A stretch of DNA of 44,535 bases from Actinomycetota bacterium (GTDB lineage: Bacteria > Actinomycetota > Thermoleophilia > UBA2241). How positions within the stretch are numbered: the stretch's first letter is position 1; each line of letters starts with the position of its first letter. The notes under the pieces were generated by a model. The model did not search any database and was not told the DNA's origin. It worked only from the letters and a program-made list of their open reading frames with translations. Made by a program: the position numbers and the translations under genes. The stretch is taken from NCBI GenBank assembly GCA_026392265.1, contig JAPLCL010000074.1, positions 1-44,535 of the forward strand, read 5' to 3'. Shown here in pieces: positions 4,741 through 38,882 of this stretch.

Positions 4741-6290
4741 CCCTCGGCGCCGCCCTCTCGCTCCTGCTCTTGCCACTTGCGCTTTTCGCCCTGCCATCCG
4801 CCGCCATCGCAGCGCCCTGCGCGGCGGTCTCGCTCGGCGTTCCCGCGCCGGCCGCGCACGCCAACACGCCTCCATCGCTCGGCGTGTGGGGCACCAAAGG
4901 CTCCGGCCCGATGCAGTTCCAAGGGCCGACGGGCATCGACGTCGGCCCCGAAGGGGTGTACGTCGCCGACCAGGGCAACAGCCGCGTGCAGGTGTTCACC
5001 GAGAATGGCGACTTCGTCAGGGAGATCGGCAAGCACGGCGACGCCAAGGGCGAGTTTCTGTCCATCACCCGCATCCACGTCAACGGCGGCGGTGACCTGT
5101 ACATCTCCGAGGACAACGGACGCATCCAGAAGATCTTCGAAGACGGCCACGTGCACCTGTACGAAGGGAGCGGCGCCGGGGACGGGGTCTTTGACGGCGC
5201 CTGCGGGATCACGGTCGACTATGCGAGCGGTCTGATATACGTCGTCGACACAAAGAACTGCCGGGTGCAGAAGCTCGATCAGTTCGGCGCCTTCAGGGGC
5301 GCATTTGGCACGAAAGGCAGCGCAGAGGGCCAGTTCGAAAGCCCTACCGGGATCGCCGGGACGTACGGGGTCTTCTACGTGGTCGATTCCGGCAACTCGC
5401 GCATCCAGGAGATGTCGGACGACGGCGCCGTGCGCCGCGTGATAGGCAGGCCGGGCGATGGGGCCGGGGAGCTCAACGAACCGATGGGCGTGGCCCTCGA
5501 CCGGGACGGCAACGTGTACGTCGCCGACACGGGCCACGACCGCGTCGTGGTGTTCGACAATTCCGGCGACTTCGTCACCCAATGGCAGGTGACCGGCGGC
5601 TCCAGCGCCGAAGGCAGGTGCGTGGCCGACATCGCCGTCGATGGAGATGGCAACGTGTACGTCATCGACACCGTGCAGACTTACGTGCAGAAGTTCGGCC
5701 CCATCTCGAAGAGCACCGATGGGACCCCGCCGACCACCAAGGTCCACAACGCCGACGACGAATGGCATCGAACGGAGGTGAAGCTCACCTTCACGGCGAC
5801 CGACGTCGGTGGCTCGGGGGTGGACTTCACCGAGTACACGATCGGCGGCGGAGGTTGGACGCCGGGCCCCGTGGCCATCGTGCCCGCCCCCGCCGAAAAG
5901 CACCAGGGGGATGGGCCGATCAAAGTGCGGTTCCGCTCGGTCGACCGCGCGGGCAACGTGGAGCGCTACAAGAGCGTGACGGTGCTCATCGACACCGAGG
6001 CGCCCGTGGTGGAGGTCCATCGCTCAAGCGTGACCAAGGGCCGGCGGGCGAGCGTCCGTTTCTCGGCGAGCGATCGGCTCAGCCCCCAGCTCATGGTGAT
6101 CGGGACGGTGGAGACCAAATCCCACGACGTGCTGCACACCGCGCAGTCGGAATGGTTCAAACCGAAAGGCCTCAATGGCTGGAGCTTCATCGCCAGGTTC
6201 CGGAAGGGCTACTATCTAGCGACGATCACGGCCTACGATCGCGCCGGCAACATCAGCGCGACGGAACAGAACTGGTTGGTCGTCAACTGA
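4704..6290 (+). CDS. secreted NHL-repeat beta-propeller protein with a C-terminal Ig-like/beta-sandwich region
   Basis: ATG 4704 follows GGGGAGG. Signal peptide LSLLLLPLALFALPSAAIAAP. Repeated NHL units are present, e.g. GPMQFQGPTGIDVGPEGVYVADQGNSRVQVF, GQFESPTGIAGTYGVFYVVDSGNSRIQEM, GELNEPMGVALDRDGNVYVADTGHDRVVVF. The C-terminal part carries two DRAGN motifs. Confidence 0.8.
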   Translation: MTVPGISATRRGALGAALSLLLLPLALFALPSAAIAAPCAAVSLGVPAPAAHANTPPSLGVWGTKGSGPMQFQGPTGIDVGPEGVYVADQGNSRVQVFTENGDFVREIGKHGDAKGEFLSITRIHVNGGGDLYISEDNGRIQKIFEDGHVHLYEGSGAGDGVFDGACGITVDYASGLIYVVDTKNCRVQKLDQFGAFRGAFGTKGSAEGQFESPTGIAGTYGVFYVVDSGNSRIQEMSDDGAVRRVIGRPGDGAGELNEPMGVALDRDGNVYVADTGHDRVVVFDNSGDFVTQWQVTGGSSAEGRCVADIAVDGDGNVYVIDTVQTYVQKFGPISKSTDGTPPTTKVHNADDEWHRTEVKLTFTATDVGGSGVDFTEYTIGGGGWTPGPVAIVPAPAEKHQGDGPIKVRFRSVDRAGNVERYKSVTVLIDTEAPVVEVHRSSVTKGRRASVRFSASDRLSPQLMVIGTVETKSHDVLHTAQSEWFKPKGLNGWSFIARFRKGYYLATITAYDRAGNISATEQNWLVVN

Positions 6291-9030: not shown

Positions 9031-11751
9031 ATGGTCAAGCTCATCGATTGGCGCGCCCTGCGCGGCGCCAACTACTACAGTTACCGCCCGGTGATCGTCC
9101 TCCAGGTCGATCTTCAGGAGCACGACGAGGTCTTCACCAACCAGCTCGAAGGCTTCACCGATGCTCTGCTCGCGCTCGTCCCCAGCCTTGAGGAACATCG
9201 CTGCTCCGAAGACGAGCGCGGTGGGCTCATCCGCCGCATGCGCGAGGGCACCCTGCTAGGGCACGTCATCGAGCATCTCGCTCTGGAACTGCAGTTCATC
9301 GCCGGCATGGAGGTGGGCTACGGCAAGACCATCGACGCGGACGCCCCGGGCGTCTACCAGGTCATCTTCAGCTACTGGGTCGAGGAGGCCGGCGTCACTG
9401 CCGGCGAGCACGCCATCGAGATCGTGAACGCCATCCTGGAAGGCAAGCCCGAGAGCATCGACCTCGAGGGCATCATCATCGAGCTCGAGGACATCGGCGC
9501 CGATCACTTTCTCGGGCCGTCTACGGCGGCGATCGTGGAGGAGGCGGAGCACCGCGGCATCACTGTGCTCCGCCTGGACGACTACAACCTCGTGCAACTC
9601 GGCGAGGGCAAGTACCAGCGCCGCATCGAAGCCAGCATCACCTCGCTGACGAGCATGATCGGCGTCGAGACGGCCGGTAACAAGAGGCTCACCAAACACA
9701 TGCTCGGGGACGCCGGCATCCCGGTGCCCAAGGGCACGGTCGTGCGGCGCGTCGAGTCGGCCATCGAGGACGCCGAGTGGCTCGGCTACCCGGTCGTGGT
9801 GAAGCCCCACGACGGTCACCACGGCAAGGGTGTCACCACGGGCATCAACGACGAGGCCGACCTGCGCGAGGCCTTCGCGCGCGCGCAGGCTATCAGCGGC
9901 AAGGTCATCGTCGAGAAGTTCTACGCGGGCAACGACTACCGCATCCTCGTGGTGGACGGCCGCTTTGTGGCGGCCGCGATGCGCGAGCCGGCCGCCGTCA
10001 TCGGCGACGGCGAGCACACTATCCAGGAGCTCATCGACCTCGAGAACCGCAACCCGCGGCGGGGCTACGGCCACGAGAAGGTCATGACGCGGCTGTCCAC
10101 CTCGTCGGTCACCGAGTACCTGCTGGAGCGCGTTGGCTCCACCCTGGCGACGGTACTGCCGGCCGGCGAGGTCTTCCGCCTCGAGCTCACCGCCAACCTG
10201 TCGACCGGCGGCTCGGCGGTCGACGTCACCGACACGGTGCACAATGCCAACCGCTTCATGGCCGAGCGCATCGCCAGCATCATCGGGCTCGACATCGCCG
10301 GCATCGACGTGATCGCCGCCACCCTCGAGCAGCCCGTCAAGAGGATCGGCGGCGCCGTCATCGAGGTCAACGCCGCGCCGGGTCTGCGCATGCACCTCGA
10401 GCCGGCCGTCGGCACGCGACGCAACGTGGCGGCGCCCATCGTGGAGATGCTCTTTCCGCGCGGCGCCCCGCACGACATCGGCATCATCGCCGTCACCGGA
10501 ACCAACGGCAAGACGACGACCGTGCGGCTCACCGCGCACATCATGGAGCACGCCGGCTACAGCGTGGGGATGACGACCACCGACGGCATCCACGTGCGCG
10601 GCAACCTCATCGCCGAGGGCGACATGAGCGGTCCGTACTCGGCGCAGGTCGTGCTCCGCGACCCGCTCGTCGACTGTGCCGTGCTCGAGACGGCGCGCGG
10701 CGGCATCCTCAGGGCGGGCCTCGGCTACAAGACTGCGGACGTCGGCGTCGTGCTCAACGTGCAGCCCGACCACCTGGGCCTGCAGAACATCCGCGACGTC
10801 AGCGAGCTCGCCAAGGTCAAGGCAGTCGTCGCCGAGGCGGTCAGGGAGGGCGGCACCACGGTGCTCAACGCCGACGATCCCGCCTGCGTCGACATGCTGC
10901 AGTACTGCCGTGAGCGAGTCATCTTCTTCTCGCTGCGCTCGTCCAACCCGGTGGTGCTCGAACACGTCGACCGTGGTCACACCGCCGTGGTCTGCGAGCA
11001 GGACTACATCGCCATCCTCGAGAACGACCACTTCATACCGGTGGCCCGCGTCGACGACGTCCCGCTGACGCTCGGCGGTCGCGCCGTGTTCAACATCCAG
11101 AACGCCCTGGCGGCGACGGCCGCGGCCTACGCGCACGGCGTGAGCACCGGCGACATCCGTCGCGGTCTCACTTCCTTCCTGCCGTCGCCGCTGCAAACGC
11201 CGGGACGCCTCAACCTGAAGAGGATCGCCGGCGTCGACTATCTGCTCGACTACGGCCACAATCCCCACGCCTATCGGGCGTTGCTGTCGCTGGTCCAGCA
11301 GCTCGGCGAGCGCCGCCGCATCATCGTGTTCGATGTGGTCGGCGACCGCAGGGACGAGGACTACGAAGAGATCTGCGGCCTGATCGGCCCGCTGTTCGAC
11401 GCCGCCTTTCTGTACGAGGCCGACGACCTGCGCGGTCGCGCACCGGGCGAGCTCATGGACCTGCAGACACGCTTCCTCACGGCCGCCGGGCTCGACGCCG
11501 CCGCCATCGAGAGGTCGCCGGACGAGTCGGAGGCAATCCGGCGCGCCACCGCGAGCGCCCGGGCCGGCGATCTCGTCTGCTACATGACCGGTCGGGTACA
11601 GGGTGGTATCGAGTGGCTGCACGACTGCGAGGAGCGCGCCCGCGTCGCGGCCGAGGCGGTCGGGGCCGGGGCAGGCACGTCGAACGCCGCAGCGGACGCG
11701 ACGGCGGCCGAGGCAAGCCCGGCGAGCGCCTCTGACGAGGGCGGCGCGTGA
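9031..11751 (+). CDS. cphA: cyanophycin synthetase (N domain, ATP-grasp G domain and Mur-ligase-like M domain)
   Basis: ATG 9031. The N-terminus MVKLIDWRALRGANYYSYRPVIVLQVDL is characteristic. ATP-grasp region: GYPVVVKPHDGHHGKGV...GNDYRILVVDGRFVAA. M-domain P-loop: IIAVTGTNGKTTT. 906 aa. The ORF-track extension 8569..9030 is antisense to iadA. Confidence 0.9.
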   Translation: MVKLIDWRALRGANYYSYRPVIVLQVDLQEHDEVFTNQLEGFTDALLALVPSLEEHRCSEDERGGLIRRMREGTLLGHVIEHLALELQFIAGMEVGYGKTIDADAPGVYQVIFSYWVEEAGVTAGEHAIEIVNAILEGKPESIDLEGIIIELEDIGADHFLGPSTAAIVEEAEHRGITVLRLDDYNLVQLGEGKYQRRIEASITSLTSMIGVETAGNKRLTKHMLGDAGIPVPKGTVVRRVESAIEDAEWLGYPVVVKPHDGHHGKGVTTGINDEADLREAFARAQAISGKVIVEKFYAGNDYRILVVDGRFVAAAMREPAAVIGDGEHTIQELIDLENRNPRRGYGHEKVMTRLSTSSVTEYLLERVGSTLATVLPAGEVFRLELTANLSTGGSAVDVTDTVHNANRFMAERIASIIGLDIAGIDVIAATLEQPVKRIGGAVIEVNAAPGLRMHLEPAVGTRRNVAAPIVEMLFPRGAPHDIGIIAVTGTNGKTTTVRLTAHIMEHAGYSVGMTTTDGIHVRGNLIAEGDMSGPYSAQVVLRDPLVDCAVLETARGGILRAGLGYKTADVGVVLNVQPDHLGLQNIRDVSELAKVKAVVAEAVREGGTTVLNADDPACVDMLQYCRERVIFFSLRSSNPVVLEHVDRGHTAVVCEQDYIAILENDHFIPVARVDDVPLTLGGRAVFNIQNALAATAAAYAHGVSTGDIRRGLTSFLPSPLQTPGRLNLKRIAGVDYLLDYGHNPHAYRALLSLVQQLGERRRIIVFDVVGDRRDEDYEEICGLIGPLFDAAFLYEADDLRGRAPGELMDLQTRFLTAAGLDAAAIERSPDESEAIRRATASARAGDLVCYMTGRVQGGIEWLHDCEERARVAAEAVGAGAGTSNAAADATAAEASPASASDEGGA

Positions 11752-12599
11752 CGTCGCCGAGCTCGGGCTGGACGGTGCTGATGGGCGGTTCCGGCGCGGA
11801 GGGCATGGACCGCTCGATCATGCACCGCTTCGTGGAGCTGGCCGGCGGCGCTGTGGACGCGCGCGTGGCCATCGTGCCGACGGCCAGCGAGCAGCGCGCC
11901 GACACCATCGAGCGCTACGAGAACGCCTTCGAACTTGAGGACGTGCACCACATCGAGGTCCTCGACATCCGCACGCACCATCACGCCGACCAGCCGGAGA
12001 CGCTGCAGGCGCTCGAGGACGCGACGGCCATCATGTTCACCGGTGGCGACCAGCTGCGCCTGCTGTCGATCCTTGAGGGCACGCGTTTCGTCGACGAGCT
12101 GCGGCGCCGCAGCCGTGACGGCCTCGTGGTGGGCGGTTCGAGCGCCGGCGCCATGGCGCTCGGCGACCCCGTGATCGTGCGCGGCGAGCCCACGCTGTTC
12201 TACGAGCCCGGCGCCATCTCCCAGGTGCCCGGCCTCGCCATCGTCCCGGGCGTGACCGTCGACACGCATCTCGTGGCGCGCGGGCGACTCACCCGCCTGC
12301 TGCCCGTGGTGGCGGCTCGCCCTGATGCGCTTGGCGTGGGCATCGAAGAGGGCAGCGGCTTGACGATGTCCCCGGACGGCCTCGCGACCGTGTTCGGCCC
12401 CGGCGTGGTGTGCATCGTGGACGGCGCCGCCGCGGCGCCGGCCGGAGGGCCGCGCCCCGGCGGCGTGCGCCCCGGCGGCGGCGAGGAGCGCCGCAGTACC
12501 GACCACGGCCGCGCCCTGTCGCTCACCGGCCTGCAGCTCCACGTGCTTGCTGCCGGCGATAGGTTCGACCTGCGCGGGCGCCGCGTCGTGTACGGCTGA
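11748..12599 (+). CDS. cphB: cyanophycinase (peptidase S51), no signal peptide, so intracellular type
   Basis: The GTG start overlaps the cphA stop (GTGA). VAIVPTASEQ, FTGGDQLRL and the nucleophile motif GGSSAGAMALG are S51/cyanophycinase signatures. Confidence 0.85.
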   Translation: MTSPSSGWTVLMGGSGAEGMDRSIMHRFVELAGGAVDARVAIVPTASEQRADTIERYENAFELEDVHHIEVLDIRTHHHADQPETLQALEDATAIMFTGGDQLRLLSILEGTRFVDELRRRSRDGLVVGGSSAGAMALGDPVIVRGEPTLFYEPGAISQVPGLAIVPGVTVDTHLVARGRLTRLLPVVAARPDALGVGIEEGSGLTMSPDGLATVFGPGVVCIVDGAAAAPAGGPRPGGVRPGGGEERRSTDHGRALSLTGLQLHVLAAGDRFDLRGRRVVYG

Positions 12600-12658
12600 C
12601 CCCGCGCCGCAGCACCACCACCAGCACCATCGACCCCCAAGCACAGGAGCATGCCGCC

Positions 12659-14593
12659 TTGGACGCGACCACACACTTCGACCTCAGTCATCTCCGGGCG
12701 TACCCGGGCCCCAGCGTCTCGCTGGCCGTCGAGGCGGTGGCCTTCGAGCTCTCGTCCGGAGGCGGCCTGCCCGGAGGTGACCTGTGGGCCGCGGTCCTGG
12801 GCCGCTTGCCCGGCCTGACCGGCGAGGAGCCGCCGCGCACGTTCGCCGAGCTCTTCGCGCGCGCCGTGATCGAGGTGCAGCGGCTCGATATGGGGCTGTT
12901 CGCGACGCGTTGGTCGGTCACCGCCGCGGACGACGGCGTCGTCACCGTCGCCGTGCAGTACGTCGACCCGGACGTGTGCCGGCGCTGCGTCGAGCTCGTC
13001 GCCGACTGGCTGCGCGACGAGCTCGAGGGCCGCGCCTTCGACTTCGACGCGCGCTACGCCGCGGTGCTGCGCCGCTTTCTGCGCAGCCACTTCGGCGGCC
13101 CCACCATCTACTCGCTGCTCGAGGCCGGCTACCGCGCGGGCATCCCGGACTTCTACCTGGAGAGCGAGGACGTGGTCCAGTGGGGCTACGGGCGCAAGCA
13201 GCTGCGCGGGCGCTCAACGGTGCTGCACCGCGACAGCATCAAGGATACGGAGCTGACCACCTACAAGGACCGCGCCAAGGCCTTCCTCGACGACCTCGGG
13301 CTGCCGGTGCCGCGCGGCGAGATCGTCTTCGAGCTGGATGAGGCTCAGCACGCCGCCGCGCAGCTCGGCTTCCCGGTCGTCACCAAGCCCGTCGCCGGGC
13401 ACAAGGGCCAGGGCGTGACCACCGGCATCTCGTCGGAGCGCGACGTGAAGATGGGCTTCGAGCTCGCCGCGCAGGCTTCGGGGAGCGCCGACGACGGCGT
13501 CATCGTCGAGCAGCAGATGGCCGGCACCGATCACCGCCTGCTCACCGTCGGCGGGCGCTTCGTCGCGGCCCTGCAGCGAGTGCCGGCTTATGTGGTCGGC
13601 GACGGCGAGCACACCGTGCAGGAGCTGATCGCGCTCGAGAACGCGCGCCCCGAGCGCGCCGACACGCCGCGCTCGCCGATGGGCAAGATCGAGGTCGACG
13701 ACAACCTCATGCAGCTCCTCGGCGACCAGGGCCTCTCCCTGCGGGACGTGCCGGCCCTCGGCGAGGAGCTGGTCCTGCGGCGCGTGGCCAACCTCTCGCA
13801 GGGTGGCGTGTCGGTCAACGTGACCGACGTCATCCACCCCCTCAACGCGAAGCTGGCCGAGGACGTCGCTCGATTCCTCGATGTGCACGTCCTCGGCATC
13901 GACGTGCTCGCCGAAGACATCACGCGACCGTGGACCGAGAGCCCCTGCGCGATCATCGAGATCAACGCCGGCCCCGGCGTGTTCATGCACCTCGTGCCTG
14001 CCCAGGGCGAGTCGATCGACGTGCCCTCCATCGTGCTTCAGGGCCACTTCCCGACGCCGCAGGCGGCGCGCGTGCCCGTGCTGGTGTTCAACCGCCTGGA
14101 CGCCGCAACGGCGATGCGCCTCACGGAGCTGGGCCTGCGCTGCCCCGGCGTCGAAGAGGTCGGCGTGACGCGCCTGGACGGCCTCTACTTCAACAACGAG
14201 CTCTTCAGCCGGCGGCCCGAGCATCTCGCCGACGTCCGTAACATGATGCGTAGCCCGCGCCTGGACATGGCCCTCATCGAGTACGACGAGCGTCACCTCC
14301 TCGACGAGGGCCTGTACAACTGGGGCGCCGACGTCGTCGTGCTCGAGCGCGCGACGCGCATAGAGCGTGAGACGCTCACGCGCGACCTGCAGCCCGGCGG
14401 CTTGGTGATCGAGGTCGACGAGGCCGCCGGCCTGCTGCACCTGACGCCGCGCGAGGGTGAGCCGTCCACGCGGCCGCTGGGGGACTCGCTGGCGGACAGC
14501 CTCGCCGATGCGCTCGCTGCCGTGCTTGCCGGCATGGCGGACTTCTACAACGTGCAGAACGCCGTCGACGGCAACTACGCGCGGCCGCACTGA
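12659..14593 (+). CDS. cphA2: CphA2-like truncated cyanophycin synthetase paralogue (N and G domains intact, M domain vestigial)
   Basis: TTG 12659 lies 8 nt after AGGAG. The ATP-grasp block GFPVVTKPVAGHKGQGV...GTDHRLLTVGGRFVAA...IEINAGPG parallels cphA. At the position of the CphA P-loop (IIAVTGTNGKTTTVRL) it reads VPVLVFNRLDAATAMRL. It has 644 aa against 906 aa for cphA. Confidence 0.75.
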   Translation: MDATTHFDLSHLRAYPGPSVSLAVEAVAFELSSGGGLPGGDLWAAVLGRLPGLTGEEPPRTFAELFARAVIEVQRLDMGLFATRWSVTAADDGVVTVAVQYVDPDVCRRCVELVADWLRDELEGRAFDFDARYAAVLRRFLRSHFGGPTIYSLLEAGYRAGIPDFYLESEDVVQWGYGRKQLRGRSTVLHRDSIKDTELTTYKDRAKAFLDDLGLPVPRGEIVFELDEAQHAAAQLGFPVVTKPVAGHKGQGVTTGISSERDVKMGFELAAQASGSADDGVIVEQQMAGTDHRLLTVGGRFVAALQRVPAYVVGDGEHTVQELIALENARPERADTPRSPMGKIEVDDNLMQLLGDQGLSLRDVPALGEELVLRRVANLSQGGVSVNVTDVIHPLNAKLAEDVARFLDVHVLGIDVLAEDITRPWTESPCAIIEINAGPGVFMHLVPAQGESIDVPSIVLQGHFPTPQAARVPVLVFNRLDAATAMRLTELGLRCPGVEEVGVTRLDGLYFNNELFSRRPEHLADVRNMMRSPRLDMALIEYDERHLLDEGLYNWGADVVVLERATRIERETLTRDLQPGGLVIEVDEAAGLLHLTPREGEPSTRPLGDSLADSLADALAAVLAGMADFYNVQNAVDGNYARPH

Positions 14594-31786: not shown

Positions 31787-33664
31787 ATGCAAGCGCAGCC
31801 GGAGCGCATCACCCAGCCGTCCCGCCGCGCGCGTCGGCTGCGGCTCGCCGCGGGACTCGTGGCGGGCGCCGTTGCGGCCGTGGCGGCGCTCGCCTTCCTC
31901 GGCGCGGGGCCGTTCGGTCTGAGCGCCCGGGCCGCCGCGGCAAGCGCTTCGCCGAGCCCCGGCGAAAAGGTCGTCCTGCGCATCGGGGTCACCGAGGACG
32001 TCGATAACCTGAACCCATTTGTGGGCTACACCGAGCTGGCCTTCGAGGTCTTCTCACAGAACTACGAGTACCTCGTCGAGCGGCGCCCGGAGGACTTCGG
32101 CCCGGGGCCGGACGGCATCGCCGAGAGCTGGGAGTCCTCGCCCGACGGCAAGACCTGGACCTTCCACTTGCACAAGAACATCACGTGGCAGGATGGACAG
32201 CCGCTCACCGCCGACGACGTGGTCTTCACCTACAACTACGTCATCGACAACGAGATGCCGGCGTTCTCGGGAACGGCAAAGGGCATCACGAAGGCGGTCA
32301 AGGTCGACGACTACACCGTCCAGCTCGTCACCGACAAGCCCAAGTCCAACATCCTGCGCCTGTGGATCCCTATCCTGCCTAAGCACATCTGGGAGAAGAT
32401 CCAACCGAAAACGGCGGCGACGACGTACAGGAACGCACTGCCCGTCGGCAGCGGCCCGTTCCAGGTCGTGGAGTGGAAACGCGGCTCCTACCTCCGCTTG
32501 CAGGCCAATAAGGAGTACTGGCAAGGGGCGCCGGGCGTCGACGAGCTCATCTTCCAGATCTACAAGAACCCCAGCACGATGGTGGCCGATCTCGCCGCCG
32601 GCCGCATCGACGCCGCCCACAACATCCCGCCGGCGGAGTTCACGAAGCTCAAGAACACTCCCGGCATCAAGGCCATCGCCTTCGTGATGTTCAACTGGGA
32701 CTACCTGAACTTCAACTGCTACACCGGCGCCGGCTCATTGGGTGACCCGGTGCTCAAGGACGCCAAGTTCCGCGTCGCTCTGGACTACGCGATCGACCGG
32801 GAGAAACTGGTGTCGATCGCCTACGGGGGGTACGCGGTGCCCGGTACGACGGTGCTCCCCCCCGACAACTGGAAGGACCCGGACTTCCATTGGCAGCCTC
32901 CGGCCGGCGTGCTGCGCACCTTCGACCTCGAAAAGGCCAAGAGCCTCCTGGACGAGGCCGGGTACAAGGACACCGACGGCGACGGTACGCGCGAGTACAA
33001 GGGCAAGCCCATCAAGCTGCGCCTGTGGGCCCCGGCCGGCGCCATCCAGACCCAGAGCGCCGCCAAGCTCATCACCGGCTGGTTCGGTGACATCGGCCTT
33101 GACATCGACTTCCAGGTCGTCGACGAGGGCGTCTACAACGACCGTATCTGGAACTACGTGGGCGACACCTACGCCCCCGACTTCGACATGTACCTGTGGA
33201 CCTGGTACGGGTACGCCGATCCCACGCAGACGCTCGACTCCTACACGACCGCGCAGATCGAGGGCTGGAACGAGCCCTGCTGGTCCAACGTGGCGTACGA
33301 CGGCGCGTACCAGCTGCAGGCCCGCGAGCTTGACCCGCAGAAGCGCGCCGCGCACGTCTACGACGCGCAGGAGGCGATGTACGCCGACAACCCGCAGTCG
33401 ATCACCGTCTACCCGAAGCTGCTGCAGGCCGTCAACACGGCGAAGTGGGATGGGTGGATCTACAACGAGCTGGGCGGTGGCCAGGCATTCTTCAGGGGCG
33501 CCAGCCAGAAGAGTTATCTGACCGTCAAGCCCAAGGCAGGGGTCGAAGCCGCCGGCACGTCGTCGACCTGGATCTGGGCGCTGGTCGCTGCCGGAGCGGT
33601 GATCGTCATCCTCGTCGTGGTCATGCTCGCGCGCCGCCGCCGGCGCGCCGTGGAGGAGGCCTGA
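31787..33664 (+). CDS. family-5 (peptide/nickel/opine type) ABC solute-binding protein with a Tat-like signal and a C-terminal TM anchor; no cognate permease or ATPase genes adjacent
   Basis: ATG 31787. N-region SRRARRLRLAAGLVAGAVAAVAALAFLGAG. SBP_bac_5 blocks: LRIGVTEDVDNLNPF, WTFHLHKNITWQDGQPLTADDVVFTY, GSGPFQVVEWKRGSYLRLQANKEYW. The C-terminus reads TSSTWIWALVAAGAVIVILVVVMLARRRRR. Confidence 0.8.
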   Translation: MQAQPERITQPSRRARRLRLAAGLVAGAVAAVAALAFLGAGPFGLSARAAAASASPSPGEKVVLRIGVTEDVDNLNPFVGYTELAFEVFSQNYEYLVERRPEDFGPGPDGIAESWESSPDGKTWTFHLHKNITWQDGQPLTADDVVFTYNYVIDNEMPAFSGTAKGITKAVKVDDYTVQLVTDKPKSNILRLWIPILPKHIWEKIQPKTAATTYRNALPVGSGPFQVVEWKRGSYLRLQANKEYWQGAPGVDELIFQIYKNPSTMVADLAAGRIDAAHNIPPAEFTKLKNTPGIKAIAFVMFNWDYLNFNCYTGAGSLGDPVLKDAKFRVALDYAIDREKLVSIAYGGYAVPGTTVLPPDNWKDPDFHWQPPAGVLRTFDLEKAKSLLDEAGYKDTDGDGTREYKGKPIKLRLWAPAGAIQTQSAAKLITGWFGDIGLDIDFQVVDEGVYNDRIWNYVGDTYAPDFDMYLWTWYGYADPTQTLDSYTTAQIEGWNEPCWSNVAYDGAYQLQARELDPQKRAAHVYDAQEAMYADNPQSITVYPKLLQAVNTAKWDGWIYNELGGGQAFFRGASQKSYLTVKPKAGVEAAGTSSTWIWALVAAGAVIVILVVVMLARRRRRAVEEA

Positions 33665-33733
33665 GGGAGCCGAGCACTCATCTGGGGCTCCGTCTCTTCC
33701 GCGGCGGAGCCGGATGATAGTTATTCTCCACAG

Positions 33734-33779
33734 TTGGGTATCTTGATTGTCGAGAGACTTCTCGAACGAGGATACCCAA
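33734..33779. promoter_or_regulatory. nested palindrome (putative MarR operator) covering the MarR RBS and start codon
   Basis: TTGGGTATC (33734-33742) and GATACCCAA (33771-33779) form a perfect 9-bp inverted repeat. They enclose TCGAGA-gact-TCTCGA (33750-33765). The element sits in a locally AT-richer patch. The GAGGA RBS (33768-33772) overlaps the right arm, and the A of the ATG is its last base. Confidence 0.55.
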
Positions 33780-34234
33780 TGAGTCACGAGTACACAGCCG
33801 AAGACATCACCTGGGCGACACGCAGACTCGACATAGCCATGTCGCGCCTCATGGTCGCCCTGTCTCGCGAGGTCGGTATCAGCGTCCCCGAGATGCTTGC
33901 GCTCGAGTATCTGGACGTCGACGGGAGCGTCGGCCCGAGTGAACTGGCGCGCCGGTTGCAGATGACCTCGGGGGCGATGACCGCGCTCGTCGATCGCCTC
34001 GAGCAGAGTGGCCACGTGGTGCGCGAGCGGCATCCCGCCGACCGCCGCAGGGTCCTTGTGACGCGCACGCAGAAGGCAGACGAGGATCTCACCGCGGAGA
34101 TCGCGCCCATGGCGCTGGAGATCCTCGAGCTGGCCGAGGGCCTGGACGACGCCGAGCGTCAGGCCGTAGGCCGATTCTTTGACGGCTTCATCGCGATCAT
34201 CGAAAGCACCGCTGCTGAGGCGTGCGCCCGATGA
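33779..34234 (+). CDS. MarR-family transcriptional regulator
   Basis: ISVPEMLALEYLDVDGSVGPSELARRLQMTSGAMTALVDRLEQSGHVVRERHPADRRRVLVTRT is the canonical MarR winged helix-turn-helix including the DRR wing motif. Confidence 0.85.
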   Translation: MSHEYTAEDITWATRRLDIAMSRLMVALSREVGISVPEMLALEYLDVDGSVGPSELARRLQMTSGAMTALVDRLEQSGHVVRERHPADRRRVLVTRTQKADEDLTAEIAPMALEILELAEGLDDAERQAVGRFFDGFIAIIESTAAEACAR

Positions 34235-34304
34235 CGTGCAGGCACACAAGACCCGACATCGCCGTCTTTGTCGACGGCGCTCACGACTGAAGAAGGAGCA
34301 CGAC

Positions 34305-35084
34305 ATGGCCAAAGACATCACTGACGACCGGCGCCTGAGTCGCCTGCGCTGGTGGAACATCATCGTCGGTCTGATCCTCGGCGTTCAGGCCGCCGCCATC
34401 GCGATCCTGACCAACGGCTTCAGCCTGCCCGTGACGTCTACCTACATGACCGGGCCTCCCGGCACGCCGCCCGAGCTCAACACGCTGTTTGATCTGCCGC
34501 TCGGCTGGGGCGTGTTCGCGTTTCTCGCCATCTCGGCCGCGGCGCTGTTCATCATCGCCATGCCGGGCGTGTTCGAGTGGTACAAGCGCAACCTGCAGCA
34601 GGACCGCAACTACGGGCGCTGGATCGAGTACTTCTTCAGTTCGTCGATCATGATCGTGCTCATCAGCATGATCACCGGCGTCAGCGACGTCGCGGCGCTG
34701 CTCGCGATCTTCGGCGTCAACGCCAGCATGATCCTCTTCGGTCTGCTCATGGAGAAGTACGAGACGCCGGGCAAGCCTAGCTGGCTCTCGTTCTGGTTCG
34801 GCACCTTCGCCGGCATCATCCCGTGGGTCATCATCGTGATCTACGTGTGGAGCCCGGGGCTCGACGGTCCGTCGCCGCCGACGTTCGTCTACGGGATCAT
34901 CGCCAGCCTCTTCATCTTCTTCAACGTGTTCGCCATCAACATGTGGCTGCAGTACAAGAAGATCGGGCCCTGGAAGAACTACCTGGTCGGCGAGAAGACG
35001 TACATCATCCTCAGCCTGACGGCCAAGGCCCTGCTCGCGTGGCAGGTGTTCTCGGCCGTGCTGGCGGGCTCAGGCGCCAGCTGA
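34305..35084 (+). CDS. heliorhodopsin (7-TM retinal protein, inverted topology family)
   Basis: ATG 34305 follows GAAGGAG. There is full-length resemblance to heliorhodopsins: RLRWWNIIVGLILGVQAAAIAILTNGFSLPVTSTYMTGPPG, RWIEYFFSSSIMIVLI (Glu codon 34626-34628), ALLAIFGVNASMILFG, FWFGTFAGIIPW, FVYGIIASLFIFFN, and YIILSLTAKALLAWQ (TM7 Lys codon 35025-35027). Confidence 0.9.
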   Translation: MAKDITDDRRLSRLRWWNIIVGLILGVQAAAIAILTNGFSLPVTSTYMTGPPGTPPELNTLFDLPLGWGVFAFLAISAAALFIIAMPGVFEWYKRNLQQDRNYGRWIEYFFSSSIMIVLISMITGVSDVAALLAIFGVNASMILFGLLMEKYETPGKPSWLSFWFGTFAGIIPWVIIVIYVWSPGLDGPSPPTFVYGIIASLFIFFNVFAINMWLQYKKIGPWKNYLVGEKTYIILSLTAKALLAWQVFSAVLAGSGAS

Positions 35085-35117
35085 CCCGCGCTTCAGGTTC
35101 CAGCCGACCCACGCCGT

Positions 35118-35159
35118 GAGACGCCGGGGCGGGCGCGAGAGCGCCCGCCCCGGCGTCTC
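35118..35159. terminator. bidirectional terminator-like perfect hairpin between the convergent heliorhodopsin and hydrolase genes
   Basis: GAGACGCCGGGGCGGGCGC-gaga-GCGCCCGCCCCGGCGTCTC forms a 19-bp perfect stem with a 4-nt loop. There is no strong U-tract. Confidence 0.6.
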
Positions 35160-35173
35160 GTTGTCTGCATCCG

Positions 35174-36175
35174 TCAGGACGTCGTGCCGCCCGCGGGCAG
35201 GTACGCCAGAGTCTCGCCGGGAGCGAAGGCTGCGGAGACGTCACCGACGCGGTCCGGATCGCTCACGAGGTCGAGCTTCAGGGCCGGGGCTCCCGGGCTG
35301 AAGTCCAGGGCGTCGAGCCGCACCCAGACGATGTTGGGGCTGGTCGTGGACTCGAAGTAGTACACCTTGTCGGTCAGGTCGGCGACCGTGCTCCAGCGCG
35401 TCGCCGAGATGTTGGGCCGCGCCGGGTCGACGGTGCCGAACGGCTGGGCCGCGCCGCGGGTCACGCTGAGCACGCTGGCGATCGCCTGGCGCTCGTCGTC
35501 GGTCGCGGGCAGATGGGCGAGGTAGTAAGCGGTGCGCACGAAGCGGTCGTCCGCCTGCGTGGTGCCGGGCAGCGGCTTCACGCCGCCGAAACCGGCGTAG
35601 TCGGGGAGTGCCGCGATCTGCTGGTCGAACGGCGGTGAGTTCGTCATCGTCGTGAACTGCGTGCCGTGGTGGACGTGCTGCACGCCGTCGAGGAACTCGA
35701 TGATGGCCGAGTCGCCTGCGGCGTCGGCCAGCGCGATGTGGCCTGTGCCCGGCTTGCCGCTCGATCCCAAGGCTGCGGAGCACACCTGGTAATCACTGGT
35801 CTCACACCACGCCACCGCCTCCGCCACGGTGGCGAACATGTCCAGAAGGAACTGACCGTAGACGCTGATCGCGAGGCCGGGCCGGCGCTCGTCGCGCTCG
35901 CCATAGTCCGCCTCGGTGAGGTAGAGACCGCTGACCGCCAGGCCCTTCTCGTTGACGCCGTCGACGCAGACGACGTCGTACATGGCGGCCACCACGCTGC
36001 CGTATCTCGACGTCCACCTCACGGTCTCGCCCGACGTCATCCCGTCGCGGGCGATGCCCCGCGTCAGCGCCCACAGGTTGGTGCGCGTGTCTTCCATCCA
36101 GTCCATGTTGCGGCCCACGACGACGATGCCCTTGCCGGGCTCGCCCCCGCTCGACCAGAGTGCGCGTGTGCACAC
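35174..36175 (-). CDS. choloylglycine hydrolase / penicillin V acylase family Ntn-hydrolase (linear amide C-N hydrolase)
   Basis: The N-terminus MCTRALW has the nucleophile Cys directly after Met. VVGRNMDW and the family-typical length (333 aa) support the call. Confidence 0.75.
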   Translation of the reverse strand: MCTRALWSSGGEPGKGIVVVGRNMDWMEDTRTNLWALTRGIARDGMTSGETVRWTSRYGSVVAAMYDVVCVDGVNEKGLAVSGLYLTEADYGERDERRPGLAISVYGQFLLDMFATVAEAVAWCETSDYQVCSAALGSSGKPGTGHIALADAAGDSAIIEFLDGVQHVHHGTQFTTMTNSPPFDQQIAALPDYAGFGGVKPLPGTTQADDRFVRTAYYLAHLPATDDERQAIASVLSVTRGAAQPFGTVDPARPNISATRWSTVADLTDKVYYFESTTSPNIVWVRLDALDFSPGAPALKLDLVSDPDRVGDVSAAFAPGETLAYLPAGGTTS

Positions 36176-37904: not shown

Positions 37905-38882
37905 ATGACCGCGGCGATCCTCACCCAGCGTCTGACGAAGACGTACGGCCGGCAGCGCGGCATCGTCGACCTCGATCTCGAGGTCCCGCCAGGCCGCGTG
38001 TTCGGATTCCTCGGCCCCAACGGCGCCGGCAAGTCGACGACCATTCGCGTGCTGCTGGACCTCATCCGGCCGACCACGGGACGGGCCGCAGTGCTCGGCC
38101 TCGACAGCCGCCGAGACGGCGTCGCGATCAGGCGGCGCAGCGGGTACCTGCCCGGCGAGCTGAGCCTCTACGGGCGGCTCACCGGGCACGAGACGCTGCG
38201 CTACTTTGCCAACCTGCGCGGCGGCGTCGACTCGGGTTACGTCGACGATCTGTGCCGGCGCCTCGACTTCGACGCCGGCAGAAGGGTCGCCGACCTTTCG
38301 ACGGGCAACAAACGCAAGCTCGGTCTGATCCAGGCGTTCATGCACAGGCTGGAGCTGCTCATCCTCGATGAGCCCACGTCCGGCCTCGACCCGCTGGTCC
38401 AGCACGAGTTCTACCACCTGGTCTAGGAGGCCGGCGAGGCCGGGCAGACGGTGCTCCTCTCGTCGCACGTGCTCCCCGAGGCACAGCGCGCGTGCGACAC
38501 CGTAGCCTTCGTGCGCGAGGGCACGCTCGTTGCCATCGAGGACGTGGGCGAGCTCACCGGACGGGCGCTCCGCGAGATCGAGGTGACGTTCGCCGCGCCG
38601 GTGCCCGCCGCGGCATTTCTCGGCGTCTCCGGCGTGACCGCGGTCGTCGAGAACGGCACCGAGGTCCCGCGTGCCGCCGACCGCCATACGCTGCGCCTCA
38701 CGGTGAGCGGTCCGCTCGACGCCGCCGTCAAGAAGCTCGCCCAGTTCGACGTCGTCACGCTGACCAGCCGTGAGCCCGACCTTGAGGACGTCTTTCTCGC
38801 GTTGTACGGCGAGAACCCGGGGTACTCCGCGCCGGCCGCGTCCGGCGCAGGCGCCGGGGAGGAGGCCGGCCATGTTGCGTGA
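37905..38882 (+). pseudogene. ABC-2-type transporter ATP-binding protein interrupted by an in-frame TAG (38424-38426)
   Basis: Walker A GPNGAGKST, signature LSTGNKRK and Walker B LLILDEPTSGLD lie before the stop. The H-loop block QTVLLSSHVLPEAQRACD lies after it in the same frame (ORFs 37905..38426 and 38451..38882). The junction reads FYHLV*EAGEAGQTV. Confidence 0.8.

Follow-up and report, generated by a model that had tools for sequence, protein, structure and literature searches.

A heliorhodopsin gene preceded by a dedicated MarR-family regulator and a conserved candidate operator in Thermoleophilia

The DNA analyzed here is a stretch of 44,535 nucleotides (nt) (hereafter the window; contig JAPLCL010000074.1 of assembly GCA_026392265.1) from an uncultured actinobacterium of the class Thermoleophilia, from soil or sediment. 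It contains two genes on the same strand, marR (33779-34234) followed by heR (34305-35084), which form a module of approximately 1.45 kb and encode a MarR-family regulator and a heliorhodopsin (HeR), respectively. Our comparative analyses indicated that this pairing is real and not accidental, and we consider it fairly probable that the two genes constitute an autorepressed bicistronic operon whose regulator is dedicated to the heliorhodopsin gene, with the inducing signal put forward as a proposal. A first-pass annotation of the window, made from the sequence alone, had suggested an autoregulated MarR-HeR module, and this is the best-supported reading of the locus. The features on which the analysis draws are as follows.

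33718..33728, + strand: putative -10 block TAGTTATTCTC (consensus TAGnnATTCTC), conserved in 22 genome loci and in 39 distinct sequences, with CTC invariant
33734..33779, no strand assigned: candidate operator region with a nested palindrome, from conserved columns, a dyad scan and a weight-matrix scan
33768..33772, + strand: marR Shine-Dalgarno sequence GAGGA, 6 nt before the ATG, partly overlapping the right arm of the outer repeat
33779..34234, + strand: marR, a MarR-family winged-helix regulator of 151 amino acids (aa), from Pfam, PDB and ortholog alignment
34260..34279, + strand: spacer hairpin or palindrome CGCCGTC-TTTGTC-GACGGCG, with conserved stems and a variable loop, in the window's clade only
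34293..34298, + strand: heR Shine-Dalgarno sequence AAGGAG, conserved in every relative in the form (A)AGGAG or AGGGGC
34305..35084, + strand: heR, a 259-aa heliorhodopsin, from PF18761, NF038020 and alignment with the 48C12 structure
35118..35159, no strand assigned: terminal hairpin of 19 perfect pairs with a 4-nt loop, between the convergent heR (+) and the hydrolase gene CBAH (-)

The MarR-HeR pair and its candidate operator

On the heliorhodopsin side, the 80 best related genome loci (L001-L080) were compared; the nearest of them belong to metagenome-assembled genomes labelled Thermoleophilia or Actinomycetota, many of which come from a single large survey. A MarR gene was located directly 5' of heR on the same strand in 23 of the 80 loci, mostly in Thermoleophilia metagenome-assembled genomes. 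In 22 loci, the upstream MarR was 59-92% identical and the HeR 79-97% identical to those of the window, and in L052 a MarR of 43% identity precedes HeR with a gap of 7 nt and a recognizably related upstream block. In a neighbor-joining tree of HeR, the MarR-linked proteins comprised the whole of one clade, formed by the window and L001-L009, and the greater part of a second.

On the MarR side, a metagenome scan returned 38 loci. All 27 MarRs that were at least 61% identical and had 150 nt or more of sequence downstream were followed directly by HeR; six MarR loci without HeR stop at a contig edge, and three MarRs of approximately 40% identity with room downstream are not followed by HeR. As all close MarR orthologs with downstream sequence precede HeR and those at approximately 40% identity do not, this MarR ortholog group therefore appears to be dedicated to HeR. 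The recurrent adjacency on which the first-pass annotation had staked its module is thus borne out from both directions, and the marR-heR module was found in at least 50 independent environmental sequences.

The upstream neighbors of HeR in the MarR-free loci are mixed, including membrane proteins, PIN, fasciclin-like, methyltransferase-like and EamA proteins, among others, and no substitute regulator was evident upstream of these HeRs when the translations were inspected, without a profile scan. Two loci carry remnants of the regulator. In L040 (5688-5903), an in-frame internal deletion of marR leaves a 71-aa product with the N- and C-terminal helices only, the DNA-binding domain being gone, while the operator and heR are intact; in L020 (approximately 5760-5885), only an N-terminal MarR remnant is left. 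These loci show signs of a secondary loss of MarR within the second HeR clade and are natural regulator 'knock-outs'.

Directly upstream of marR, a block of approximately 50 bp (consensus TAGnnATTCTCAtctnnTGGGTATCTTgnnnnTCGAGATACTTCTCGA) was conserved, with invariant GGGTAnC and AG..ACTT in the 22 genome loci, and the 39 distinct sequences agreed. The spacing of its core is GGGTAnC-N10-AGnnACTT, represented in the window by GGGTATC at 33736-33742 and AGAGACTT at 33753-33760, and the sequence farther upstream was not conserved in the 22-locus alignment. The motif GGGTANC-N10-AGNNACTT occurred exactly once in each of 19 MarR loci, always 5' of marR, and never in the MarR-free loci. The window contains it once, a further match with two mismatches at 33874, inside marR, being at chance level. 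A weight-matrix scan of 2.25 Mb (both strands counted) placed sites solely upstream of marR, and neither the motif scan nor the weight-matrix scan found additional copies near heR or near the neighboring genes for a DAO-type oxidoreductase, a nudix protein and CBAH. We infer that the block is a candidate protein-binding operator of MarR.

The nested palindromic operator described in the first-pass annotation was upheld in part. Both repeats are present in the window: an outer perfect 9-bp inverted repeat (TTGGGTATC at 33734-42 and GATACCCAA at 33771-79) and an inner palindrome, TCGAGA-gact-TCTCGA, at 33750-33765 (arms 33750-55 and 33760-65). In the dyad scan, the inner palindrome ranked first, with five of its six positions 0.74-0.92 complementary, and GTAnCT-N9-AGnTAC ranked second (in the window, the second dyad pairs GTATCT at 33738-43 with AGAGAC at 33753-58). 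The outer repeat was 66% paired across relatives; its left arm coincides with the invariant GGGTA block, and its right arm, which overlaps the Shine-Dalgarno sequence, is kept mainly in the window's clade. Purine-rich counterparts of the marR Shine-Dalgarno sequence are found in the relatives. Perfect 9-bp inverted repeats with a gap of at most 40 nt amount to approximately 70 distinct cases in the 44.5 kb, compared with approximately 23 seeds in composition-matched shuffles, and because the GC-rich window contains so many such repeats, the presence of the outer repeat is by itself no evidence of function. Across all relatives, the inner dyad and the left arm are therefore the conserved parts of the described operator, whereas its perfect outer repeat is clade-specific and statistically not unusual.

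Immediately upstream of the operator region, TATTCT at 33722-33727 matches the pattern TAnnnT, and the TAGTTATTCTC block that contains it probably serves as the -10 element of the promoter for marR-heR. An E. coli-type scan of positions 33400-35400 for promoters and U-tract terminators, which relies on the E. coli consensus, found none; such a scan says little for a 69%-GC actinobacterium, and the terminator was therefore judged by folding and positional conservation.

The gap between marR and heR is 70 nt in the window, as the first-pass annotation had given it, and 70-97 nt in the window's clade. In the distant relatives, in which the HeR N-terminus is longer, the gap is only approximately 28 nt including an AGGAG Shine-Dalgarno sequence, and these relatives therefore have no space for a separate promoter or terminator. 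The spacer palindrome of the window's clade is missing from them, and the spacer as a whole folds with an unexceptional energy (z=-0.78); the palindrome might act in partial termination, in transcript processing or as a further site for protein binding.

Downstream of heR, the perfect 19-bp hairpin that had been noted as closing the unit is present, with a folding energy of -55.9 kcal/mol (z=-5.3 and z=-5.1 on the + and - strands, respectively). Most of the 20 loci folded also have a hairpin directly after the heR stop codon, rich in GC but different in sequence, and it was clear in 15 of the 16 MarR-carrying loci among them, the exception being L027. The terminal hairpin probably acts in both directions as an intrinsic terminator that lacks a U-tract. 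Taken together, the short marR-heR gaps and the hairpin after the heR stop codon indicate that the transcription unit is marR-heR.

The two proteins

The heR product matched the heliorhodopsin profile PF18761 over profile positions 1-242 of 242 (E=4e-96, 321.5 bits, cutoff 26.7) and the NCBIfam equivalog NF038020 with 322 bits (cutoff 100), and it showed full-length homology to two heliorhodopsins of solved structure, 48C12 (6su3, 6uh3; E=1e-71 against 6su3) and TaHeR (6is6; 3e-54). The initial assignment as a full-length heliorhodopsin, for which four sequence blocks had been quoted, is therefore well founded, since the profile scores lie far above the cutoffs and the four blocks align accordingly. 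The lysine and glutamate that had been placed in transmembrane helices (TM) 7 and 3 were identified by the 48C12 alignment as K241 (codon 35025-27), which pairs with the Schiff-base K241 of 48C12, and E108 (codon 34626-28), which pairs with the counter-ion E107; these positions, as well as S237, which pairs with S237, lie in gap-free alignment blocks. E108 and K241 were invariant in the 81 HeR relatives examined. The retained pocket and cavity residues are S77, N102, R105, W106, E108, Y109, N139, M142, E150, F206, E230, S237 and K241, so that equivalents of Lys241, Glu107, Ser237, Ser76, Asn101, Trp105, Tyr108, Arg104, Glu149 and Glu230 of 48C12 are kept. All 15 lysine and arginine residues other than K241 are found in the N-terminus and the TM2-3, TM4-5 and TM6-7 loops, with none on the opposite side, a charge pattern that fits the positive-inside rule with the N-terminus in the cytoplasm (i.e., the inverted topology). 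By these features, the protein is predicted to be a normal retinal-binding member of its family.

In comparison with 48C12, the HeR of the window carries Met for Gln213 and Leu for both His23 and His80, at L25 (34377-34379) and L81 (34545-34547). Unexpectedly, neither the window nor any of its 80 relatives (L001-L080) has a cavity histidine, leucine being present at both positions. The wider family was sampled by 88 full-length representatives, of which 58 have His/His and three have Leu/Leu, so that the histidine pair is typical of heliorhodopsins but not strictly diagnostic. According to Kovalev 2020 (PMC7049168), His23 and His80 are highly conserved and have an important part in proton transfer. 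The HeR of the window thus belongs to a rare His-less subgroup in which the proton-transfer step may differ, and a subgroup without both cavity histidines offers a natural variant for photochemistry.

When approximately 36 open reading frames of the window were scanned against Pfam, no match to the carotenoid and retinal synthesis families was found, in agreement with the first-pass annotation, which had seen no crt or blh genes in the window. As far as this window is concerned, the retinal of HeR most likely comes from outside the cell.

The marR product matched PF12802 (1.9e-13, 50.8 bits, cutoff 27) and PF01047 (4.4e-13, 49.3 bits, cutoff 24.6), and it matched 46 PDB sequences, nearly all of the MarR family (best 3bdd, 1e-8), which confirms that a MarR regulator precedes HeR on the same strand. 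The conserved wing motif HP.DRRR is present. An alignment of 42 distinct orthologs fixed the N-terminus, the start codon being the ATG at 33779 rather than the upstream TTG at 33734. None of the named NCBIfam MarR subfamilies (MarR, OhrR, HpaR, FabT, Rv0880, BilQ and others) scored above its cutoff, the highest being the Rv0880 family with 43 bits against a cutoff of 220, and the protein is by these profiles a generic MarR outside the named subfamilies. Its sole cysteine, C149 (codon 34223-34225), is located three residues from the C-terminus in an AAEAC motif that is near-invariant in the 42 orthologs, and it may act as a redox or thiolation sensor. The sensing cysteine of OhrR, SarZ and MgrA is N-terminal, in helix 1, whereas the only cysteine of this MarR is C-terminal.

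Proposed regulation and its alternatives

In the autorepressed operon that we propose, transcription would start just upstream of 33734, run through marR, the 70-nt spacer and heR, and stop at the hairpin at 35118-35159. A MarR dimer, or possibly two, would bind at 33734-33779, between the putative -10 block and the marR start codon, and thereby repress both genes by blocking initiation or early elongation. A signal, either a small lipophilic ligand or the oxidation or thiolation of C149, would free MarR from the DNA, and HeR would be produced solely under the condition that relieves MarR. The binding of MarR at this site, the repression, the position of the promoter and the nature of the signal are all inferred. 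HeRs have been tied by gene context to light-induced oxidative stress (Bulzu et al., bioRxiv 10.1101/2021.02.01.429150), and a thiol switch at C149 would fit such a link, speculative as this is.

Several observations weigh against this proposal. The promoter is undefined by the E. coli-type scan, and the spacer palindrome might uncouple heR from marR, either by partial termination or as a second site of regulation. The length of the operator is unusual, with two overlapping dyad centers approximately 9 bp apart, which makes the binding stoichiometry ambiguous, and the operator scan covered 3-8 kb on either side of the loci, so that a wider regulon is possible. MarR proteins are able to activate transcription as well as repress it, and repression is assumed here from the position of the site alone. 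Finally, the conserved C149 may be merely structural.

An alternative hypothesis is that the two proteins form a photosensor-transducer pair, in which the activation of HeR by light causes MarR to be bound or released at the membrane and MarR, as the soluble output, places the operon and perhaps other genes under the control of light. The strict and exclusive link of this MarR subfamily to HeR would be expected of such a pair; moreover, HeRs have been reported to act by binding partner proteins from the same operon (PMC11109279), and for one microbial rhodopsin, binding to a helix-turn-helix regulator with an effect on transcription has been reported (PMC11217422). However, no HeR position separated the MarR-linked from the MarR-free loci, the sole marginal column being 121, in a hydrophobic stretch. 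Orthologous HeRs also exist at the same locus without MarR, such as an 83%-identical relative with the order PIN-heR-nudix at the same position between thrS and infC and no marR, and MarR was repeatedly lost or gutted while HeR was kept, as would sooner be expected of an upstream regulator than of an obligatory signaling partner. In addition, the scanned DNA contained the operator nowhere but upstream of the operon itself, which would leave such a photosystem without a further output. A transducer of the sensory-rhodopsin type would be expected to be required by its rhodopsin, to be conserved with it and to co-evolve with it, a pattern that this MarR does not show. We therefore regard a photosensor-transducer pair as unlikely, and the suggestion in the first-pass annotation that the photoreceptor feeds back on MarR found no computational support in these comparisons. 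At a similarly low level of probability, HeR and its dedicated MarR might form a one-step light-to-transcription switch, or, in a variant of this idea, MarR might sense retinal or a retinoid. If the former were true, MarR would be the first soluble transducer to be identified for a heliorhodopsin; if the latter, the apoprotein would be produced only when its chromophore is available.

The nested palindrome might also function at the RNA level, as a 5'-leader hairpin that sequesters the marR Shine-Dalgarno sequence and start codon and exerts translational or attenuation control, instead of or beside a DNA operator. The leader of the window is indeed predicted to be stable (-26.7 kcal/mol, z=-3.3), with the Shine-Dalgarno sequence and the AUG buried, and 7 of 11 orthologous leaders, the window included, folded better than shuffles (z -2.2 to -4.7) into similar nested shapes. 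However, the other four were not stable, and any transcribed palindromic operator would fold in this way. RNAalifold gave 0 consensus pairs in 35 sequences, and the covariation analysis of the palindromes revealed one pair with a double change and a degree of pairing no better than that of column shuffles. The Rfam search returned no family match; its sole hit, on the terminator hairpin, was a microRNA artefact below threshold. As the invariant bases form sequence blocks rather than pairs, the region is therefore read as a protein-binding DNA site; RNA structure was rejected as the main explanation, and a regulatory leader hairpin seems improbable.

It is very improbable that the adjacency reflects inherited gene order only, with marR and heR separately transcribed and regulated and MarR controlling something else: the locus does lie within a strongly syntenic region (thrS-PIN-nudix-ABC-corA-infC), and the 70-97-nt spacer of the window's clade does contain a conserved palindrome, but the pairing persists as MarR identity drops to 59% (43% in L052) and while the flanking genes for DAO, a solute-binding protein (SBP), PIN and CBAH change, the gap is approximately 28 nt in most relatives, HeR adjoins every MarR ortholog with downstream sequence, and no second operator was found nearby.

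Known systems and neighboring genes

Autoregulated MarR operons, such as E. coli marRAB, OhrR-ohrA and those of other thiol-sensing MarRs, encode a winged helix-turn-helix protein of approximately 150 aa, with the regulator gene first and a 16-21 bp pseudo-palindrome between the promoter and the start codon. The predicted unit of the window is similar in its MarR of approximately 150 aa, in having the regulator first and in its candidate dyad site before the start codon, but its cargo is a photoreceptor rather than an efflux pump or a detoxification enzyme.

A previous survey of 448 HeR genes (Cho et al. 2024, Nat Commun; PMC11109279) defined ten operon groups, one of which contains a MerR-family regulator; the only MarR in its supplementary tables comes from an Izimaplasma genome and lies at a distance of three genes from helR. 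Similar to those groups, HeR is predicted here to be co-transcribed with one neighbor, and the MerR group is likewise a pairing with a regulator. However, MarR is not among the ten groups, and in the module described here it is the first gene of the operon with its own conserved predicted operator, which points to the control of HeR expression rather than to HeR controlling a partner enzyme. MarR is not mentioned by Bulzu et al. (bioRxiv 10.1101/2021.02.01.429150), and no pairing of the MarR family with a heliorhodopsin or another microbial rhodopsin was found in the literature searched, which was covered partly by title and abstract and lay mostly outside the subscription journals. Thus, neither the HeR family nor this kind of regulatory logic is new, but a dedicated and conserved MarR-HeR operon with an operator of its own seems not to have been described.

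Rhodopsins have been linked to soluble regulators before, as in Gloeobacter rhodopsin with the DNA-binding regulator GvTcR (PMC11217422) and Anabaena sensory rhodopsin with its soluble transducer ASRT (mentioned in PMC7049168). The present locus similarly links a rhodopsin gene to the gene of a soluble regulator. Compared by Pfam only, the MarR of the window showed no homology to GvTcR or ASRT, and the comparative data here speak against an obligatory partnership.

The physiological role of HeRs is debated, and the proposals rest on in vitro binding to neighboring enzymes or transporters. A dedicated regulator with a defined and conserved operator would provide a direct experimental handle on HeR, as whatever releases MarR (a metabolite, an oxidant, retinal or light) would point to the condition in which the cell wants its photoreceptor. 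The module is small and readily rebuilt as a reporter, which offers a way to ask when HeRs are switched on.

The gene order in the window is thrS, a phd/PIN toxin-antitoxin pair, the DAO-type oxidoreductase, SBP, marR, heR, CBAH (-), nudix, an ABC transporter, corA and infC, and the region from thrS to infC is strongly syntenic among relatives, with PIN, nudix, ABC and corA in between. A look-up of the exact HeR sequence of the window yielded no record, and gene context was read instead from the 96%-identical contig P0001; there, PIN lies immediately 5' of marR, and in many other relatives DAO takes this place. The SBP gene was found in few of the relatives' loci, in one of them downstream. 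In the window, SBP (31790-33664) encodes a family-5 protein (peptide/nickel type) whose C-terminus carries a hydrophobic anchor and then RRRRR, genes for a permease or an ATPase do not adjoin it, and together with the DAO oxidoreductase it forms a variable insertion between PIN and marR. The upstream SBP had been considered as a candidate partner of HeR or MarR; this candidate was discarded, as SBP is missing from most relatives' loci or positioned elsewhere, and PIN or DAO occupies its place in close relatives.

CBAH (35174-36175, - strand), a choloylglycine/penicillin-V-acylase-family hydrolase, is a convergent insertion between heR and nudix. Besides the window, only a few relatives (L002, L005, L007 and L081) have it, and most are without it. 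SBP and CBAH are both placed outside the marR-heR unit because their presence and position vary among relatives. In the relatives without CBAH, nudix follows the heR hairpin and has its own conserved start region, ATACT-N7-ATG.

The adjacency of nudix and HeR is more widespread than that of MarR and HeR. In the clade-A relatives L004, L006, L008 and L009, the nudix gene downstream of heR opens with a common gcCATACTnnGCGCATGCC sequence, located approximately 60-90 nt past the heR stop codon (6815-6835 in L004 and 6790-6810 in L009), and the nudix gene of the window is at approximately 36255. This sequence looks like a -10 element positioned for a leaderless transcript.

Farther downstream in the window, an in-frame TGA at 38424-38426 splits the ABC-transporter ATPase gene (37905-38882; ...FYHLV*EAGEAGQTVLLSSH...), whose intact homologs in relatives are 269-338 aa in length; it is either a nonsense mutation (i.e., a pseudogene) or an assembly error. 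Elsewhere in the window, a cyanophycin-type cluster at 9076-14593 encodes a CphA-like cyanophycin synthetase (891 aa), a cyanophycinase-like S51 peptidase and a second ATP-grasp protein.

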